Program-made: the position numbers and the translations under genes
The notes under the pieces: model-generated
Databases searched by the model: none
Told to the model about the DNA's origin: nothing
What the model saw: only the letters and a program-made list of their open reading frames with translations
In this document: positions 2,758 to 15,727 of the stretch, one piece after another
How positions within the stretch are numbered: the stretch's first letter is position 1
How the letters are laid out: every line of letters begins with the position of its first letter
Origin: Hemiscyllium ocellatum
Taxonomy: Eukaryota
Length of the DNA stretch: 64,000 bases
NCBI RefSeq assembly: GCF_020745735.1
Contig: NW_026869311.1
Span: forward strand, 1 to 64,000
Reading direction: 5' to 3'

Positions 2758-4547
2758 TGTTTCTGAACACCATCCCTCATGGATGGGCTCTCACCTTCAG
2801 GATCTGCTGCTCCCCTGATAGTCCCCTCAAGTCTGGAAATATCCCACTCAAAGAAACCAATTTTCTCCATTGACCTGATCAAATCAATTAATCACCTTCA
2901 AATCTTAATTATAATTATTTGCTTTTTTTGTACTCATGGAAACACAAAAATGTTTAAAATTCTGTCATTGGCCTCACTGGCTGGGTCAGCATTTAATGCC
3001 CATCCCTCGTTGTCCCTTGAGAAGTTAGGGGTGAGCTGCCTTTTTGAACTGTTGCAGTCCGTGGTGTGTGGGGACACCCTTTATACTGAGGGAGGGAATT
3101 CCAAGACTTTGACCCAGTGACACTGAGGAACGGTGATATATTTCTAAGGCAAGATGGTGAATGGCTTGGAGGGAGCCTTGTGGGTGGTGTTCCAATGTAT
3201 CTGGTGTCCTTGTCTTTCTAGATGGAAGTGGGTGTGGATTTGGAAGGTTCTGTCTAAGGATCTGAATTGTATCTTCAATGCAAATGGTCCTCATTTTTAA
3301 CCCTGCCGTCACCCCAGTGAATTGGTGCTGCATTCCCTCAGAGATGAATAGATCAGGACTGAATACAATATTGTAGATGTGTACTCACTGGCATTTAATA
3401 AAACTGTAACAGAACTGTCAGATGCATAACCTGAGGGGGCATCATTTAAAGGTGAAAGGCAGGACAGGTCGAAGAAAGCATTTGTCACCTGGAGGGTGGG
3501 TGGGCTGCCAGGCAGGGGCGTAGAGATGGGAACCCCACAACCTTTAAAAAGTACACGGAGGAACACTTGAAGTGACATTATATTAAGTCCATGGACTAAG
3601 TGCTGGAAAGTGGGACTAATGTAGACAGGTCAGCACAGACCCAATGGAAGGAAGGACCTCATCTGTGCTGAGAGACTGTGTGACTCAAACATCGAGCTCT
3701 TTGTAGTTCAGGCATTTTTCTGTCTATCCATTTGTTATGGACTAGGCCAGACCACTCAAACCATTCTTAAGCAGGTATCCCAGACCATAACTTTGTAATT
3801 TGTTTCGGTAAGTATCCAGTGAAGATTACCCGGATTAAGTTAGCGAGATTGACTACCAGGTTTAAAACAGACAAAAAATTTATTCACAAAATTACACAAT
3901 GAAACATGAAGAACAGAATAAAGAACGCCTACAGAACTCAGTCTATCCAAACTAGTCTTAATTCAAATATACACGACAGTCCGAATAAGCAAACCCACTT
4001 TAACACACAGCACAAAAAAGGGTCAGATGCTTACAGGTTGAAGTTAGAAGGCAGAAGAGAGACTTTGCACACAGCTCATTTTTAACTCCCAAAACGGTTC
4101 TGGACTGAACTAAACTGCTCAGCTCGAGAGCTGACCACTCCCCTTTCATTATACAGGTCACTTCTAAAACATGACCACTTTGGCCTAAAGGCTCATCTGT
4201 TTATATATAAACAAAAGGCCTCTCAATACCCTTTCATCTCTGTCCCAAACCAGCACTGAGAGCAGTGTATTACCACTCTAAAAAAAAACCAAGGACATAA
4301 TAGCTTTGAGAAAAGGGACAGCTTTTAGAAAAAAGAAACCAGCTTTGTCCATCTAAACAGTCTGGCATTTTTGTCCTTAAATTTTTCCACAAATGTCACC
4401 AGGGTATGATCAGTGAATACAATTGACTCAGATGCATTGCTGGTACTATAGACACTGAAATATTGTAATGCCAACACCAAGCTTAAAGTCTCTTGCTCCA
4501 CCGTTGAATATTTCTGTTGATGAATGTCCAACTTGCTGGAAAAATAC

Positions 4548-5211
4548 TGTTAGGCCGGAACCTCGGGGTTCCAGTCTTTGCGAGTTCTTTGGAAGGAGAG
4601 ACCGCACCAGCTTCTTTAGTTTGGAGCAGAGCACCGTTTATTTTACAGAATCAAAACTGGCAAACTGTACAACGAATTCTACAGCATGCAATTCGTTGGA
4701 GAAGGCGTTCTAACCCCTCTGCTCAAATTCGCCCCAGTTATACCCCTCGCTGGCCAGTGTTCCCGGTCAGGTGTCCACGTCTGGCCTTCCTGTTGGTTAC
4801 TCGTTCCCGGGCAAAGCGTTCCGCTCTCTGGTTGGATGGTTTGAGCTGTCTGTCCGTTTGCCTCGGAGCGGGCAGTCCCGTAGACATTGTGGGGCCACTG
4901 GTCCCGCTTATTTAATTAGTGGTTTACCAGAAACAATAGTTCATTACCATTTAAGTGAGTAGTTTTGATGGTTCAATTGACACCTCAAATAATCCAATTA
5001 ACAATGTCTACCAGTTACAAATTCCAGAGGTACAATTAATAGGCTGTCTATCAGCTAGCCTCTGATCAGATTAGGAGGCCAGCAGTTTCCAGTTCAGTGA
5101 TCATGATAGTTTAACCATTTCAGGCCCGGTGTTAGAAGCACTTGTTACAGTTATAGTTTTTACCCTCCCTAGATCTAGTGTGCCCACCCCACTAGTACAA
5201 CTACCCCAACA
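4548..5211 (-). repeat. ERV 3' LTR (664 bp)
   Basis: TG...CA termini, preceded on the minus strand by PPT AAGGGAGGGAA (5222-5212). TATAA-like motif ~4740, AATAAA 4641-4636. Confidence 0.95.
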
Positions 5212-6899
5212 TTCCCTCCCTTGGCCTCTATTGAGGCCACACCACCCCATGCCGTAAGAAACGCAACACCACGAGGTGACCGGGGTCTGGTGTGCCGGCA
5301 GACACCCCCACAGATGTCCCTTTGTCGTACCCGAGCACGTTGTCTTGACCAGAATCACCGGTTCTAGGGAGACAGTCATGTTGGGATGAAGGGTGCCCTA
5401 CGCAACATGCCGCAACACAATTTACAAATAGATAATTAAAACTACATGCAAATCTAAGTTAATAGATAAAACAACTCCGGCAGGCTTCTGCTGAAAGGAC
5501 AAAAGCACAGAATTAATCAAGCATGGCAAAAAACATGGCAAAAAGACAAACAGAGCACTGTACACGAGTACATAACAGTCGCAAGAGATTTGGAGTGGAG
5601 GAATTAAAATAAGTAAGGTGTCCGCAGAACGCAAGTCTGTAGTCCAAAGGGTACCCAAGTGTAAACATGTTCTGTGAATTGTGAATTAGAACACTAGCAG
5701 CAGTTAGGTACCTGCTAGCGAGCGGAAACCCAGTGAGAAAGTGTACTGTGCCCCGGTGTTCCCGCAGATCAGAATGCTCCACAGGCCAGCAGCTCCGTCC
5801 AGACGTCCGACATGGAAGACAGAGGCCAGAGATCTTATTAAATCATGACGAACGTGGGCCACCAGTTCCGATGTCAATGCGCGTCTGTGCCTGGCTTAGG
5901 TTGTCCCTCGCCCGAGGGATCTTACCCGTCATTGGCTAACCAGTCGTACTGCATTGAATTGTAGATATCGGCATCCGTTTCACCGCCATCAAGAACGGAC
6001 ACAGGCAGTGGCAACCGGCTCAATAGCGTGTTCAGTGGCCCTCGAGACCAGCTGAAGCCAACCGGGAAGCACTGGAGATTACGGAAGACCGGCTCCACGG
6101 TTCATGAATGGAAGTCACCCCACTGCATGTATTCCATATGTCCCTGCATGTTTGTAGGAGATCACACGCAGGCTGTCGTGTACTCAGAGTTGGTGGCGGC
6201 GCAGGCATCTGTTGAGGAGTGCAGAGCCCAGCGTATGGGGGGTTCGGTTAAAAAGTAATGATACCACATTACATTTAGACCAGAGAGATGGGGCTGCAGA
6301 AATGTGGTGAAAAGAGTCCTGCCCTCCCCAGGGTGACATTTGGTGAGGTGAGCCAGAAAACATCCTACTAGTATGGGAAATAAAAGCATTGTATTTAACA
6401 ACTGCCATTAGCACATTCCTGTGAAGGCGGAGCCATTGGGTGAGCTGATCTGGAAAAGCTCCTTGCTATTAGACTCAACGGACATCACTATGCCAGTACT
6501 TCTGGATGTGAAGTCTCATCTAGTAAAAGGAAGAAGGGGCCAGTGCGAAATGTCCAATGCATTCACTAAGACTGCCCCCCACCCAGTTGTGCAACAGAAC
6601 TGGAGAAACCAGATATCAATCAAGACAATGAGAGAGAAAGAAAAAAAAAGTGAAGGTAGGCCTAACCCCTAACCTTTCTCACAGCCCATGGACCTGTACG
6701 AAGCTGTCACCTAAAAAAATAGAGTGATCCCAGTGTGAGGTAAAAGGAGTGGTTCCGTGTAAAAAGAAGAAATAGTACCTTGTACAAAGGAGTGCAGAGC
6801 AATTTGTGAACTCCAATCAGAGAGAAAAAAGGTCCCTGACCACTGGCTGCCACAAAAGGCAATTGAAACAGGGGGAAATAGATCATCCTGTAGGGGAAT

Positions 6900-7730
6900 T
6901 GTTCGTCTTATTTTTAAAGAGTCAGAAAAAAGCGAAAAATGCAACCACCCCACTGATTCAGTATTGGGAGAGGTAACTGCGGAAAAGCAGTCACGCAAAA
7001 AGATACCAAGTAGCAGCATTTCTTAATCAGAAAAAGGTAAAAAGCAAACGTGCGCAGGCTGTGGAAGACATTCAGTAGGAAAGGCTGCGGCCAATTGGGA
7101 AATAGCACTATACAGGGCAGATAAATTCCGGGACAATGATGAAAATGCAAGATAGTACGAGTCTCGGTTATAGCTTGCCGTGCATCTGCACTAGCAGCTG
7201 CAGGCGCAAAAACGTCGTCATGCACATGAAATAAACAATGTTGAAAAGTAAAAATATCCGGCCAAGAGCTCTACCGAAAAAATAGGGTGACCCCCTAGAG
7301 GGGGTCAAAGGATTGGCAACAGTTAAAAGGGAAGAAATAAGTACACTGTATAGGGGAAGGCAAACTATGTCCACTGTCACCACAGGTGATTAAAACAGAT
7401 TGTCGTATGCGCAGGTTACTTCCTTAGGAGGCAAACCGAAAAACAGGAGGAATATAAAGTAGGTAATCAGTTCAGATGAGCTGGACATGGGTGAATGCAC
7501 CACGCATCGCGCAGGAACTGTAACAACTGCAGCGTGTACACTATGTAAATGACAAACCAGAAAGTTGTCGGGTGTGAGATCACGAACATACAGGGTCAGC
7601 TCTGCTGCAGTATGGGTGACCCGTGGCAACAGGACAATAGAGCAGCTAAATTTCCACTGTGTGGTTACGAAAAGACATGGCACAGGGGGCCCCCAATCTC
7701 CCAGGGCGCGCAGCATAACTCGCACGTAGG
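6900..7730 (-). pseudogene. ERV env relic
   Basis: Position between IN and the 3' LTR, plus weak motif resemblances: CLFVTTQWKFSCSIVLLP (~LPxxWxGxC of SU), FGLPPKEV (~IGVPRGVP) and a terminal CC like the TM CX6CC. Highly degraded; alignments by eye only. Confidence 0.5.
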
Positions 7731-8689
7731 GGAGAACCCCGAGCTGTTCGTAAATATTGTTGAGAGGTAATTTAAAAACACAAAGGCAACTCCGAAAGCA
7801 TGGGTAACATCAGCAAAAAGGGCGTATTGTTCCCTGCTCTTCCCAGATATTCATGTACGCCCTGCCCGTGTTTTAGCCTGAGGGTCCCCATGCGTCCAGG
7901 GAGAGGGTGGTGGGGAAGCTATCTGGTGGGGACCGCCGTATAAGATTTCAGAAAAGGTCAAACGAGGCCGTCTCGTCTGTCCGTGGTCCTAAATTATCTC
8001 ATGGCAGGTTTCTCTCTCAAAAGTCGCTATGTGACCAGGGGACATAATTCTCCTCCCCCACACTAGTGGCGAGGAGAGGCGCTTGGACGGTTGGTCTATT
8101 AGCAACGGCCCCCTTTAGCGGGCTACACCCTTCCTCACGACCCGCAATAATCTCCCCCTCGTCCAGCTGGGAGGTGATGTCAAGAGGGGATTCGAACTCA
8201 TTATCCCAGGTGGGTTCCCCAGGGCCAAGGTTGAAGTCAAATTTAGACAAAATGCACGTAAAACATCAACGACGAGCACAATCTTACTTTTACGACTACC
8301 CGCCTGCTCGCAGCGGAATCCATGATGAACAAGGTGGATCACTCAGGACAAGGGTCAATGAAGACGTTAGAGAGCCAGAAGCATTCCCAAAATACCAGCA
8401 AAGATATCACAGGACAGACCTCGTTCGGTGTTGACGGACAATGACCCTAACATTACGCAGAGACCTAGGCAAAGCAGGGCTCTGTTACGCCCCCTCATTT
8501 CCCACGTCCTTGTCGGGCTCAGTCTCCTGAATTGAATTCAGGGCAACGTTTGGCCTCCATGACCTGGGGCAATGGGGGAAATGGTGCCAGTTATTGTCAT
8601 CCTCCCTTCAGACCCTGCACCCAAGTTTTCCATATGTTACCGCAGTCAGGGGCCCACCAGCGGTTGTGAACGGACTTACTGCCTTGGGC

Positions 8690-11430
8690 AACTCTCACAT
8701 GCGTTGCCCCATGTGTTTTCAGCCCGTTCAGTATAAGGGATGGTGATGATTATGGAGAGGGGGCCTTTGTCACGGGGACCCTGGTGAGTAATGTAAAACT
8801 CTGGGCAATTAGGAGATTTGCGGTGGGACGAAATTGGACTGTTTGCCTGAGGGGACTTGTCCCCCTGAACGAGATACAGAACGAGAGGTGCAAGTATAAT
8901 CCTTGTGTATGCAAGAATCTGTGTGTGTGAAGGGCCGTGTGTCATAGCCAAAAGAGAGTGCGCAGGTGCTGCGGGCATATCGGACGTCGTATCTGTGTGA
9001 AACAGAGAGTGAGAGCCACAAGGGGCTGCTCAGCTAGCAGAGAGGTTAACACTGTTCTAGCTCGAAATCATCTGATTGTTAGTGAGTGGATGTGTGAGTG
9101 TTGTTAGCTAGAGCTTGCGCCCCCCTTTTTGACTGTGATATTTATGGATGTGTAACATGATCTTCTCAGGGAAGCTTCTGGTATCCTTGTAGCTTATTTA
9201 ACGTGATAAAAGCCAGAGAATGAAGGGTAATTCAAATGAGTAAGAGTAAAAAATACGTAAGTTGAGATGCATGTAACATCCCTCTGAATACTCCTGTAAG
9301 AAGGGTATGAGTAGAGTGTCCTAATCCGCAGAGGATGTCAGCTCCTATGGTGCAGAGACAAAGAGTGGAATACTGAGGGCGCGCAGAACACAAGTCCCTT
9401 CCCAGTTCAGGGGCAACCAATTGTACCGAATCTGCCCCCCACAATTTCACCACAAATCTGCGCGACTCACCGTTAATGCTGCCGCTTGGCAGCCCGTGAG
9501 TATCCCTGGGTAAGCCGTCCGGGCTTGGTGAAACAAGTGAAGTTTACTAGCGGGTGGAAAGCAGTGTTTCCCCAACCTGCACTCCGATGTGGGGGTAGGT
9601 CGCCGGAAAACACATGTTTTTTGTTTAAATCGTGACGAGGAGTATAGAGAATGATAGAATTTCACAAGAGAGTTTGCTGCATCAACATCCAGCAATCACA
9701 TGCGAATTACCAATGCAGCGACTGAGTTCCAGAAGGTGGAATATTTCAGGTGAAGTGCAGCTGAAATGGAAAAAGGGAAGTTTGAAGTCATGCTCTGCAG
9801 GAAATAGGAAGTATTACCTGGTAGAGGAATACAGTCCGTTGCCTACCGGCCAGAAAAAGAGGAGTAATCATTTAGTTCGCGCACATGGTGAATGACACGG
9901 GTAACGAGTTGTGAGTACAATCTATACAGGTCAGGACAGAAATCCTTTGTGTAGCACTGTCCTCTGTGTAAGGCAAAGTTTGTAGGTAGTAGGAGGCCTT
10001 AAGAGTTACCCGGGGAAAAGAATCATAAAGGAACCTGGTGACCCTGCCGTTTTCAGCGCGAATCTGCGCCTTGCAGGAGGTATGAACAGGTGAATTGGAA
10101 ACAACTACTCGCAGTTGAAGAGACTGAAGGATATGGGCAAGAGCTGAGCTTCGATCCCTATGCTACAGACAAAAGTTGTTGCAACGTGTGCATTGCTAGG
10201 CTATTCACACTTGGCAGTCAGTCAGGGACAAATGGGTGAGAACAGAGCATGGCCACCGTGACCGCCTAAGATACAGACAAGTAGGTATAAAATCAAATCT
10301 AGCGGTCAGAATCTGGTAGCAGGAAAGCGTAGCGACCCAGACGTCCCAAGCCCGGTAAAAGGGTCTATTGTAGGAACATGAAAGAAAGTGTAAAGATAAG
10401 CATAACGTATTGACAAGAAGAATAACAGCACAAACCCCCCAGGATCTCACCCTCGTCCTCTGAGGAGGTAGTGTCAGGCGGGGAGGTGAGCTCACACCCC
10501 CCTGCACAAGTTCGCCCTGGAGGTGGGCTCCCGTGACTATTCGAGTGTCGTTTTATGCTGCAAGGGGGTGTACCCCCGTCGGGGCTTGTGAACTCTGCGG
10601 GGCAGCAGCAGGGGCCGCGGACAGTAGGGGAATGATAAGGACGAGGCCAAGGCTCTCTACCCCTGTGGGAGGCGATTGTATGTATGGCGCTTTCAAGCAC
10701 AGGTGAAGGCAAAAACGCTCCGGATAGTGTAGGCGCAGCGGAAAGGCAAAAGAAAACGCAGGCCAGGTCTGTGACAGAGAAAAAATGACAGGCAGGCGTG
10801 AGCGCCTGCAGTGCAACAGCGGGGTCCGGAACCTTCAGGTTTAAAGTGACTGTGGCCCCGTTTATCCTTCGGGGGTCATGTAACGAATCCTGGTAGCAAA
10901 CCTCAGGGAGCGTAATACTGGGAAAAAGGGATGAGACGCAGAGTACAGCAGCAGGAGCACAGTGAGTGAAAAGCTTTTGATGGAGAGATGAGGCCAGAAG
11001 ATGAGTTACTGTGACCTGGTAGAAAACCTCAGGGAGTATAAGACCTAAAAAAGGGGATGACACTCGGAGACCAGCGGAATTTCAGGCCTGCGGACACTAG
11101 TTGAATTCAATGCTTCAAGAAGATGAGTGAAAGATAGAAAATGACGATAGAAACGACCTCAGATCCGACAGAGAACATCGAGTGGAAATAAAGGGTGAGC
11201 AGGGGTGTAGGATGGGGCACTACATACGGCAATAGAAGTCGGAATAAGATTTCAATGGGACAATTTGATACTGGCTGGCAGTTACAGGCTCTATGATCTA
11301 ATTATCAAAGAATGTAGCTTCAGACAGGTAGCCCTGCTGTTGCTAGCTGCACCCCGCATGGCTGTGAATAACCGTTTGGGGACTGGAGCTGGCAGTGTCT
11401 GTTGCAGCAATGGCACTACCCTCCCTAGCC
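8690..11430 (-). pseudogene. ERV pro-pol relic (protease, RT, integrase), catalytically dead
   Basis: PR-like ATDTAS and LFPLDVLCRI (~LLGRDLL). RT-like HDPRRING...VPDPAVALQALTPACHFFSVTDLACVFFCL, FAFTCA*KRHTYNRLPQG*, and ILLVNTLCL at the LQYVDDLLL position. IN C-terminal PRDKGPLSIIITIP (~PRWKGPYxVLLTTP). Many stops and frameshifts. Confidence 0.8.
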
Positions 11431-12223
11431 CCAACCTTTAGGAGGAGGACGAATAATAGTACGAAATAAGTGCGCATATACTCGTAAAAAGACGAAAAGA
11501 GCGCGCATGTGATTGTAATGAAAAGATGAATGAGCGCACATAACACTTTAGCGTAAGGGAAAATCTGTGGATCTGAGAGAAAGGATGAAATGGGTGTGTA
11601 AGATAGGTCAGCAAAAAATTGGAGGACATAGGCGGAAAGATGAATGAGTGCCCCCATCTCATTAAAGAATCTGTGAGCATGGGAGTGGAAAAAATGGCTG
11701 AAGCACCCATGTCGGCGGACAAAAATGAGTGACTGGTCGCGAGGAAAAAAGATGAATGAGCTAGGCCAAACCCTTTACTGTCTGCTGAGTCGCAGGTCCC
11801 GGTTGGAGACCTGAGATCTGCGGCCACCGGGAAAAAAGGAGGAATAGGCAAAAATAAGTGGGCTGGGGGATGTCAGAGCCTAATGCCGGCTTCGGTAATG
11901 CCGGGCAAACAGCGGTCGCATGAAAACCACTTTAAAAGGGGCGAGTAGTAGTGGCCTCTGTGCCACCGTATGGTAATGCTGCACTGCGCATGTTGTTGTT
12001 CGGTATTTTCTATTTAAAAGTAATAAAAAAAAGGGTACAGCCTGTCGAATAAGATGTAGTTAGAAGCAGGATTCATGTCATCATCATGATAATTTAAGAA
12101 GACCTTCCCATCAGATTATCCCCTGGACCAGGACAATCGCGCCTACGTGTCCCTCCGATGTAGTGGTGGCTTAGTGGTCGACCTGTTAGGGTCGCAGACC
12201 CCTGAAAACGAGTAGCCCCTCCC

Positions 12224-12357
12224 AGAGTGAGCAATCCCGCCAAGAGTGAGCATTCGCGCCAAAACTAAACGGACCCCGCCCAAACTGAGCATTCGCGCCA
12301 AAACTGAGCAAACCCGCCAAAAGTAAGTTGACCCGCCAGAACCAAGCTGACCCCGGG
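12224..12357. repeat. About seven degenerate 19-20-bp tandem units with E2F-like cores, inside the ERV gag region
   Basis: Units such as AAACTGAGCATTCGCGCCA. TTCGCGCCAAA at 12253 and 12292; CCCGCC(A) in most other units. Confidence 0.8.
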
Positions 12358-13235
12358 ACACCCCGGGATTTACCGTCTTGGGACGGCACAACCGTAATGG
12401 TCCAACAATTAAATGCTCCACCATCCCTTACTCTGTCACCTCTCTGTACCCATCTCTACCTTTTCAAGTAAAAGAGTAATTAAAAATGATAGTGGGACAG
12501 TACACAATGTTGGGAGGACAGAAGTCATTAACCCTAAAAATCAATGTGAGTCCACAGAGATAAATCCCAGCCCGTTAAATCCAGGGAACAAAACTCACAT
12601 ACTCGCAGAGCTGCAGATCTGCTCCTGTTTGCTGGACAGCTTTCCACGCTCTCTCTCTCTCAGGGGCTGCCGGTGCAGGTCCGCTGCACCCCGATGCCTC
12701 GCTGCCGACGCGGTCTAGCAGGTCCAGACCTGGGAGTAAGTGTTCCTGCAACACTCCCGTTCGCCACGTCCGTCAAAATCACAGCACTCACTCTTTCTCT
12801 CTCACTGGGCCGGCCCCACACTGGTTGTCACCCGCATACATGCCAAGCCACGCATACTGTCGGTGTCTCCGCATCCCCGTCTCGGCCTGTCGCAGTCCCC
12901 TGCCCTCTGTCTTAGTAACATGCTCCGAGGCGTTACAGCCTCGGCGGTCCGAGATCAGGTCCCCCATGTCGGATCTCCCCTGATGGGAACCGTGATAAAA
13001 ACAGAGCATCTTTCAAAGCCTGACCTTCGCGTGGCAGATCTCTGCTCTTAACAACCGGTCTAAGGCAGACGTCTGTGCGGATAACCCTGTTCAGAAGATG
13101 AGATCCGACCTCTGTCACCCCGGGGTTTGGTAGATGCTAGCAGCAAGTGTGTATAGCAAGATTCGTCGGTCTTAAGTGCTTTGTAACGTGGATCCAAGCA
13201 GTCAAGTATGGTCAGCACTGCAATAGGTAATCTCA

Positions 13236-13635
13236 GGGACGCGCTCGGCTCCGAAAGCCACGCGAATAAAAGGCAACAAGGGACGCGCTCGGCTCCGAAA
13301 GCCACGCGGATTAAACAGGCAACAAGGGACGCGCTCGGCTCCGAAAGCCACGCGGATTAAACAGGCAACAAGGGACGCGCTCGGCTCCGAAAGCCACGCG
13401 GATTAAACAGGCAACAAGGGATGTGCTCGGCTCCGAAAGCCATGCGGATTAAACAGGCAACAAGGGACGCGCTCGGCTCCGAAAGCCACGCGGATTAAAC
13501 AGGCAACAAGGGACGCACTCAGCTCCGAAAGTCACGCGGATTAGACTGACAACAAGGGGCGCGCTCAGCTCCAAAAGCCACGTGAAATCAAACAACAGGG
13601 GCGCGCTCAGCTCCGAAAGCCATGCAAAATCAAAC
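13236..13635 (-). repeat. Tandem array of nine ~46-bp hairpin units in the ERV leader
   Basis: Unit (+) GGGACGCGCTCGGCTCCGAAAGCCACGCGGATTAAACAGGCAACAA. Units start at 13236, 13280, 13326, 13372, 13418, 13464, 13510, 13556, 13598. Confidence 0.95.
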
Positions 13636-13875
13636 CAGTTACAAATTAAAAGGTTAGTGGTAGCTTACCAGTCAGGATTCTGCGATGCTGCTGCCAAACT
13701 GATCAGTTTTTTGGGTTGGTGAGGGTCAGAGAGCAGACAAGAAACTAACTAAAGAAATGTAACTACTGGAAGCCTTAGGTTTAACAGGCGCTTCCTCACC
13801 TTAGAAGGTTTCGGCCGAAGGTTGTCTGCCCCCTGATCCACCAACGTGGCCAACTTGCCGTGGTCTCTTTCCCTT

Positions 13876-13893
13876 CCCGCGTCAGGCTCACCA
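13876..13893 (-). promoter_or_regulatory. Primer-binding site (TGGTGAGCCTGACGCGGG; most like tRNA-Trp, imperfect)
   Basis: TGG-initiated 18-mer 2 nt after the 5' LTR. Partial match to the tRNA-Trp PBS TGGTGACCCCGACGTGAT; tRNA identity uncertain. Confidence 0.7.
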
Positions 13894-13895
13894 GA

Positions 13896-14560
13896 TGTTA
13901 GGCCGGAACCTCGGGGTTCCAGTCTTTGCGAGTTCTTTGGAAGGAGAGACCGCACCAGCTTCTTTAGTTTGGAGCAGAGCACCGTTTATTTTACAGAATC
14001 AAAACTGGCAAACTGTACAACGAATTCTACAGCATGCAATTCGTTGGAGAAGGCGTTCTAACCCCTCTGCTCAAATTCGCCCCAGTTATACCCCTCGCTG
14101 GCCAGTGTTCCCGGTCAGGTGTCCACGTCTGGCCTTCCTGTTGGCTACTCGTTCCCGGGCAAAGCGTTCCGCTCTCTGGTTGGATGGTTTGAGCTGTCTG
14201 TCCGTTTGCCTCGGAGCGGGCAGTCCCGTAGACATTGTGGGGCCACTGGTCCCGCTTATTTAATTAGTGGTTTACCAGAAACAATAGTTCATTACCATTT
14301 AAGTGAGTAGTTTTGATGGTTCAATTGACACCTCAAATAATCCAATTAACAATGTCTACCAGTTACAAATTCCAGAGGTACAATTAATAGGCCGTCTATC
14401 AGCTAGCCTCTGATCAGATTAGGAGGCCAGCAGTTTCTAGTTCAGTGATCATGATAGTTGAACCATTTCAGGCCCGGTATTAGAAGCACTTGTTACAGTT
14501 ATAGTTTTTTTCCCTCCCTAGATCTAGTGTGCCCACCCCACTAGTACAACTACCCCAACA
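13896..14560 (-). repeat. ERV 5' LTR (665 bp)
   Basis: Direct repeat of 4548-5211, followed on the minus strand by TC and the PBS. Confidence 0.95.
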
Positions 14561-15727
14561 ATACCTACTGGGTCTTTCTATTGCCTCATCATCTTCCTGC
14601 AGGAGCACTGCACCGATACCCACATCACTGACATCAATAACCACTTTGAAAAGCTTCGTATAATCCGCTGTGGCTAATACTGGGGCGATGGTTAACACAG
14701 TGTTTAGGCTGTCAGTCTGCTGTCCACTGAAACTTCTTGCTCTTTTTTTAAACAACTCAGCTAATGGAGCAGCCACACTGCTAAAGTTCAGCACAAACTT
14801 TCAGTAAAATCCATTCAACCCCCAGGAACGGTAGTCCAGCTTTTTTCGTCAACGGTGTGGGAAGTTCCCCAACTTCTTTTGTTTTCACATCCCATGGGGC
14901 CATTTGTCCATGTCCAATAACATGGCCCAGGAAGGTGACTTGGACTTTGGCAAATTCACTTTTAGCCTGGTTTACCACCTTCTGAAGTCGACCGACCAAG
15001 TCCGATAAATGTTCCTTCCAGAAGTAACTGAAAATCACCAGGTCATCAATATGCGTCACACAGTTGGGTCATCTGGCAATGGCCTTATTAGTCAGTCTCT
15101 GAAATGTGGCTGGAGCATTTTTCATACTAAGTGGCATGACTTTGAACTGATATTGTCCATCTGGCATTATGAAAGCCAAAATTGCCTTTGCTCTCTCTGA
15201 CAGGGGTACTTGCAGGTAGCCTCTGAGCAAGTCTGACTTAGAAATGTAAGTTGCTTGCTCCACTTTTTTGACACAGTCCTCCAACCGTGGATATGCATCA
15301 ATCTCTGTAACAGCGTTGATTTTGTTATAGTCCACACATAACCATTGGGTATTATCTGGCTTTGTCACCATGACTATGGGTGAGCTCCAATCACTCTAAC
15401 TCACTTTGATTATGCCAGTTTGGAGCACGTGCCCTAGTTCCTTCTAAACCTGTGCCAACTTTCAGTTGTTATGCCCATAAGGATGTTGCTTAATCAGAAC
15501 AACATCTATATCTACATCATGCCCAGTTAAATTAGGACTTCCCAACAGAAAGCCTCACTCTTCCTCACATTGAGTCCTGTCTGTTAGTGTTTACTCATTC
15601 ATTTTTACAATGTCTTGTTGCAAACTTTCTGCTCCCAGCCACACCACTTACTTTATCACCCAGAAACGTGGGCATACATCTTTATTCCCCTTCATCTAGA
15701 TCGATCTATAAATGTGAAACTTGAAGC

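Follow-up and report, generated by a model that had tools for sequence, protein, structure and literature searches.

A multi-copy, non-coding family derived from an endogenous retrovirus in the shark Hemiscyllium ocellatum and its probable spread in trans

The window analysed here is a stretch of 64,000 nt of Hemiscyllium ocellatum DNA (RefSeq assembly GCF_020745735.1, contig NW_026869311.1, positions 1 to 64,000 of the forward strand), which carries on its minus strand, at 4548-14560, a long terminal repeat (LTR) retroelement with all the marks of an integrated provirus. This element is very probably one copy of a multi-copy, non-coding family derived from an endogenous retrovirus (ERV), with an interior already dead at insertion and a likely history of spread in trans. 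Coding death before insertion, taken together with a multi-copy family, makes spread in trans the best reading. The original prediction, made from the letters of the window, had pictured a full retroviral genome decayed motif by motif; the interior is instead a scrambled mosaic of a few retroviral scraps.

Coding death before insertion

The ends of the element comprise paired TG..CA LTRs, a short target-site duplication (TSD), a polypurine tract (PPT) and a site resembling a primer-binding site (PBS), and they interrupt an older Ty3/Gypsy element, parts of which, its reverse transcriptase (RT) among them, lie on either side:

4544..4547, no strand: target-site duplication, left copy, 4 bp
14561..14564, no strand: target-site duplication, right copy, same 4-mer as 4544..4547
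4548..5211, minus: 3' LTR (TG..CA), 664 nt, with an AATAAA poly(A) signal at about 4637-4642
13896..14560, minus: 5' LTR (TG..CA), 665 nt
5212..5226, minus: polypurine tract, read from sequence, ending 2 nt before the TG of the 3' LTR
13876..13893, minus: candidate primer-binding-site-like sequence, starting TGG 2 nt inside the 5' LTR, one copy in the window
4337..4546, minus: interrupted Ty3/Gypsy RNase H, left part of the target element (Pfam RT_RNaseH, E 7.3e-13)
14817..15428, minus: Ty3/Gypsy RT of the target element (Pfam RVT_1, E 1.9e-15; 2 stops in 204 codons)

A spacing of 2 nt between the LTRs and both the PBS and the purine tract is usual for retroviruses, and the AATAAA, at position 571/665 of the LTR, is near the LTR 3' end. 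Between the two LTRs (664 nt and 665 nt) there are 6 substitutions and 1 indel, matching the roughly 7 differences in 665 positions given by the original prediction, whose reading of the 4-bp TSD, the PBS-like site and the purine tract as being in place also holds.

Between the LTRs, the interior of 8684 nt contains 308 stops over the three minus frames and has no Pfam match in any of its six frames (6/6, stops read as X), which upholds the predicted dense stops and lack of coding capacity. By frame reading, Pfam and profile scans of the interior, coding capacity for Gag, RT and integrase (IN) is absent. A PDB search of the three minus frames returned nothing relevant in two, and in the third only RT of the murine leukaemia virus (MLV) type at E 0.07-0.37; atlas searches with the interior open reading frames 7390-7809 and 11343-11774 gave no usable match. 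The longest open reading frame, 238 aa, contains the RT piece described below, and such a length is reached in 1.5% of 200 shuffles. The stop count is slightly lower than in shuffles (350 +/- 14), a deficit not accepted as a sign of coding.

The decay is far too heavy to have accumulated after insertion, as had been proposed. From six substitutions between the LTRs, about 39 (at most 85) would be expected across the whole interior since insertion. The observed/expected ratio of CpG is 0.59-0.74 across the element (interior 0.68) versus 0.30 in the Gypsy element and 0.18 in the flank, and the interrupted Gypsy RT and RNase H still match Pfam whereas the ERV interior does not. Since the interior has kept its CpG and is nevertheless less recognisable than the older element it interrupts, it did not decay in place; and because the Gypsy element is necessarily older yet well preserved, conversion between the LTRs offers no way out. 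The interior had lost its coding capacity before it was inserted here.

With 2.2e-10 per site per year, the rate assumed for sharks in PMC4422223, the insertion is about 20 (7.5-45) Myr old. For the epaulette shark, the available text of PMC10587355 gives 7e-10 per generation. The predicted recent integration thus stands as regards the near-identical LTRs, but 'young' is relative, and the claim does not extend to present activity.

Retroviral scraps and their order

One frame with stops read as X (8400-11900) was searched against 1.84 billion proteins and gave 14 matches, 10 of them RT-bearing and 4 to an env motif, 3 of these 4 with Pfam TLV_coat. Profiles were then built from ERV proteins of fish, rays and sharks (pol, 45 used of 105 found, with Gypsy-like and bird rows excluded; env, 31; gag, 8), and the best score among 40 locally shuffled interiors served as control. 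Five pieces score above the best of the 40 shuffles, in the following order along the minus strand:

10657..10883, minus: RT remnant, motifs A and B in two frames (58.8 and 14.2 bits versus 3.7 shuffled)
9339..9553, minus: env surface-subunit remnant between RT and integrase (59.7 bits versus 3.2 shuffled; 69% to P0132 over 49 aa)
8618..8719, minus: integrase zinc-finger remnant, abutting the C-terminal piece (9.0 bits versus 0.7 shuffled; 33 bits versus 21.5 in a frameshift-aware scan)
8518..8655, minus: integrase C-terminal remnant (11.4 bits versus 3.7 shuffled; tblastn E 1.7e-6, 53% to P0029)
8017..8094, minus: gag remnant with the capsid N-terminal Y.PWS..D motif, at the end of the series where gag would normally open it (16.8 bits versus 7.5 for the best of 40 shuffles)

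In the frameshift-aware scan the integrase C-terminal piece is merely level with the best control (21.5 bits); its call rests on tblastn and the shuffle-controlled profile search. Recognisable retroviral sequence totals about 720 nt, or about 1070 nt with a weak env match that possibly extends to about 9900, corresponding to 8-12% of the interior. The order RT, env, IN, gag departs from the canonical gag-pro-pol-env. Near full genome length, as the prediction had it, is therefore correct for size and not for content, which is a few pieces out of order.

Only 70 nt separate the two integrase pieces, versus 891 in the intact relative P0001, so that the catalytic core (about 820 nt) is missing. 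From RT to zinc finger the distance is 1958 nt versus 1764 nt in P0001, and with spacings so close, replacement of this region and decay beyond recognition plus an inserted env scrap cannot be separated. The first RT aspartate position is retained (FSVTDLAC, 10769). Profile scans of the interior detected none of the YxDD half of RT, RNase H, protease or the env transmembrane part. A transmembrane motif of env seen by eye at about 5640 and a QYVML at 10412 were dropped for want of profile support, and weak gag-like matches at 7901-7875 and 6157-6041 were left uncounted.

The individual motif changes from which death had originally been argued do not hold. The supposed descendant of YVDD, LVNT at 10417, lies about 85 codons past L/MPQG and has no profile match, while YVDD follows L/MPQG by 33 codons in the 4 intact relatives with both motifs (P0001, P0029, P0063, P0003; P0026 shows YVDD only and hence gives no spacing). 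No profile match falls on DTA (11405), said to derive from DTG, or on RDKGPL (8774), said to derive from RWKGPY; for the integrase C-terminal motif the alignment falls about 120 nt beyond, at 8655-8560. Despite these failed assignments, the conclusion that the interior is dead, as judged from the letters, stands.

Ancestry of class I (gamma/epsilon-like) is indicated by RT and env, both closest to class I retroviral proteins. The class I, epsilon-like ERVs of rays, sharks and teleosts (P0001, P0026, P0029, P0063, P0132) represent the source lineage of the scraps: the env scrap is 69% identical to an ERV env of Hemiscyllium ocellatum itself (P0132), and the integrase pieces are 53-55% identical to Hemiscyllium pol. 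Unlike the shark element, these ERVs keep open frames, YVDD and the gag-pol-env order. The label 'epsilon-like' is based on fish hosts, the TLV_coat env and the available part of PMC4422223, with no tree including named epsilonretroviruses. In a tree of 58 of 83 relatives that could be aligned (56 columns, weak and with unsettled bootstrap, its references being drawn from the query's own matches) the RT piece groups with fish and ray ERVs in a starred group of 10 rows (97/84). It is at most 62% identical to any of the 58, on a terminal branch of 1.49 versus a median of 0.17. As a separate observation, the fish and ray ERV pol proteins P0001, P0011 and P0026 contain about 290 residues without Pfam match between protease and RT, a gap that seems longer than in gammaretroviruses.

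Copies of the element and how they could have arisen

Additional copies were sought in sequencing runs. The interior is present in 10 of the 13 runs listed, 8 from organism A (2 studies) and 1 each from organisms B and C; the remaining three, organism-A runs of 1 million letters, contain next to no interior words and are uninformative. No RNA run is among those listed, which has no bearing on expression. Contigs of four runs (X3 and X7 from organism A; X9 and X10 from organisms B and C) were aligned to 2760-13200 at 85% likeness, at which a diverged intact relative is invisible. Coverage reaches 30/30 bins in 4/4 runs. Among 32 contigs listed, from many more in existence, 5 flank or LTR rows were dropped; for the 27 interior contigs left, divergence from the window is 2.9% (X3), 2.2% (X7), 2.2% (X9) and 2.6% (X10).

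Depth is markedly higher in the interior than in the flank. In X3 single interior contigs are 216-349 deep versus 14.8 for the flank contig, and in X7 they are 666-1129 deep versus 85.6, other flank rows lying at 47-51. Organism A would thus hold roughly 10-25 copies, a rough range, as it derives from contig depth and depth does not equal copy number. At LTR sites X7 reaches about 1800-1900, close to double the depth of the interior, a ratio that separate copies with two LTRs each and few solo LTRs would give; LTR sites in X3 are noisier (200-982). Deep contigs also cross the lesions. The integrase-core deletion is spanned by an X7 contig at 8379-8768 (depth 973.5) and an X9 contig at 8397-8819, and the RT break with the expected YxDD spot by an X7 contig at 10553-10797 (depth 666); the deep contigs over deletion and break carry 7-8 differences and 1 gap each. 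The lesions are thus common to copies, the outcome looked for by the original prediction, and its claim of an element dead before insertion and belonging to a multi-copy family is borne out by these deep, near-identical dead pieces. No major rearranging joint occurs among the rows listed.

Under the favoured reading, spread in trans, transcription of the element would start from its own LTR, and a related class I (epsilon-like) retrovirus in the same host would supply the Gag, RT and integrase that package the RNA, reverse-transcribe it and integrate the product. Repeated reverse transcription with template switching would have deleted, duplicated (a 126-nt repeat) and reordered the interior to RT-env-IN-gag, with selection acting on cis signals only during the rounds of copying.

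Several points weigh against this reading. No listed contig covers the whole interior, so that the RT-env and env-IN links are tiled and not bridged by a single piece; and just 1 of the 27 pieces (X3, 8943-9210), with 2 differences, no gap and at least 3 stops in each frame, is strict proof that another copy has all three frames closed. Distinct insertion flanks, or an outer LTR junction of other copies, are not among the loose ends listed, the 4-bp TSD being known for this copy. The flank contig against which depth is compared is not proven single-copy, and organisms B and C, at depth 4-9 with no baseline, possibly hold one or few copies. Metagenome scans for P0001 loci and for the PPT-LTR junction were blank, and a helper was not found.

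A lead to the helper comes from organisms B and C. In X9 and X10 a contig leaves the window LTR just beyond its tip at 5204 (5204-5550) and enters the same other sequence in both, and in organism B depth over the 3' end of the interior is several-fold that of the remainder. Possibly a second LTR is joined to the same 3' end in B and C, which would point to a family, sister or helper, that shares this PPT end.

Among alternative histories, the least improbable is a recKoRV-like route. On one or a few occasions the LTRs of an ERV active at the time would have taken up an old, dead mosaic interior, and the product would have been amplified in a short burst, with no long-lived lineage. This route is unlikely. 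The contigs of B and C leaving the LTR at 5204 and the deep 3' end in B, which seems tied to more than one LTR, would fit such a route, and the available text of PMC6112702 provides a precedent. An old genomic interior is, however, expected to be CpG-depleted like the adjoining Gypsy element, and CpG is kept; moreover, the interior is 97-98% alike across three organisms, more diverged than the LTR pair of this copy, which suggests continued copying. A helper would still be needed, and the route differs from spread in trans in history and not in mechanism.

Multiplication of one dead provirus at the DNA level, whether by segmental duplication or in a tandem array and without further passage through RNA, is less probable again. 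The locus is a duplication-prone tandem ferritin array, and distinct flanks were not observed among the listed rows. Against this, depth in flank contigs is about 10-25 times lower than in the interior, the element is absent from the other ferritin units of the window, and this copy has a TSD of its own and near-identical LTRs, so that here at least a genome already dead was integrated.

Decay in place of a single ancient provirus, its LTRs homogenised by gene conversion or collapsed in assembly, is largely refuted: LTR similarity alone does not speak against conversion and shark clocks are slow, but such a provirus cannot predate the far better preserved Gypsy element it interrupts, CpG is not depleted, LTRs differing at 7 places do not come from a single collapsed read set, point decay cannot reorder genes, and other runs contain near-identical interior sequence at high depth. 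Depth, Gypsy age and the 7 LTR differences likewise contradict a single copy with LTR conversion or assembly collapse, the case that the original prediction had set against itself.

A bolder version of spread in trans is tentative and on balance improbable. It would make the family a shark retroviral 'satellite' lineage, geneless for tens of Myr and across several species, held near 10 kb by a packaging or RNA-structure need, swapping helper LTRs and gaining snippets of co-packaged helper RNA out of order. Hints of this are the RT-to-integrase spacing, close to that of P0001 despite an env scrap of about 200 nt in between; scraps 53-69% identical to shark ERV proteins with everything between them unrecognisable; depth raised in the bins with RT and integrase scraps and not in that with the env scrap; and the second LTR on the same 3' end in B and C. 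The RNA-level or size constraint suggested earlier is not supported, such hints being weak and indirect. In folding, the U5-PBS-leader region (13200-13960) did no better than shuffles (z +1.08) and gave no sign of a special structure.

On structure and copy evidence the element would belong among helper-dependent ERVs. The closest system is koala PhER, described in the available parts of PMC5696478 and PMC6112702 as an element of about 8 kb with terminal repeats, a PBS-like site, patchy env similarity, no coding function and 30-40 full-length copies, which is transcribed and recombines with koala retrovirus (KoRV). Large size, terminal repeats, PBS-like site, env patch and lack of coding capacity are shared; a length such as that of the shark element is thus not unusual for a non-autonomous element, as had been supposed. 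For PhER both RNA and a KoRV partner are reported, whereas the shark element is known from DNA only, and host and lineage differ. The comparison is by description: a scrambled RT-env-IN-gag order is not described for PhER in the text available, and its interior could prove a similar mosaic.

Mouse VL30 (available parts of PMC4859993 and PMC6466679) is likewise class I-derived and non-autonomous, with stop-ridden gag/pol traces, intact replication signals and conserved full-length copies, and is co-packaged by MLV, a proven helper. The shark element resembles it in class I derivation, dead genes and intact signals, and differs in being 10 kb with an env scrap and reordered pieces, versus 5-6 kb with no env trace described. 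Mouse ETn/MusD and ERV-beta4_1B, as presented in PMC6466679, are non-coding LTR elements that lack retroviral homology in part of their interior and are mobilised by coding relatives; in contrast to the shark element they are class II (beta-like), ERV-beta4_1B is 5 kb, and mobilisation of ETn by MusD is demonstrated. Non-autonomous ERV classes are also reported in zebrafish in the accessible part of PMC8672886. Literature searches, with thin coverage of subscription papers and repeat catalogues, revealed neither a family of this kind in sharks nor an RT-env-IN-gag order; the family may already be catalogued as a repeat.

Strategy and size are not new, and no new mechanism is involved; what appears to be new is the scrambled interior and the host group. 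LTR dating and gene decay are uncoupled here, so that a protein survey would miss the family (no Pfam) or call it ancient while an LTR survey would call it recent. If the copies are dispersed, the family is a fish-lineage counterpart of VL30 and PhER, and what it conserves could reveal which cis functions retroviral RNA requires. The scrambled order would be a fossil record of template switching.

Other features of the interior and the locus

The remaining features of the interior are as follows:

13235..13622, no strand: 46-nt tandem array of 8.6 copies in the leader
12216..12353, no strand: degenerate 19-nt tandem array, likewise in the leader
10889..11075, no strand: internal duplication with a 126-nt period, copies 77% identical
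5227..8016, minus: 3' interior without recognisable protein homology, holding a stretch (about 5850-5970) common to a far more abundant repeat

Depth over that stretch reaches 88,000 at 5894 in X7, and loose ends occur at 5915 and 5945 in X9 and X10; by its likeness to the abundant repeat it appears to be a piece captured from another element. In the RNA sense the interior is rich in U and C and poor in A (T 2524, C 2317, G 2013, A 1829), which may reflect mutation bias over many rounds of copying without coding constraint. An Rfam search of the window gave no match.

Subfamilies exist. In the main organism-A family in X7 the sequence is longer by 28 letters at 7823 (depth 930); 945 nt (7631-8577) are skipped in a minor form from the same run (depth 130). 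As 4 of 288 letters differ between the flank contig and the window, organism A may be another population or species.

The target Ty3/Gypsy family (3733-4543 and 14565-15540) is very abundant, with depth up to about 200,000 in X7 and hundreds of loose ends at 3733, likely the LTR edge of that family; the ERV insertion split its RNase H codon run cleanly. Gypsy and ERV together sit between two units of a tandem array of ferritin genes on the minus strand (1-1700 and 17700-64000), which comprises 8-9 units about 5-8 kb apart. The ERV interior is absent from every other ferritin unit of the window. The units display a four-exon pattern with exon copies 84-98% alike, and to our knowledge a ferritin cluster this large is unusual.

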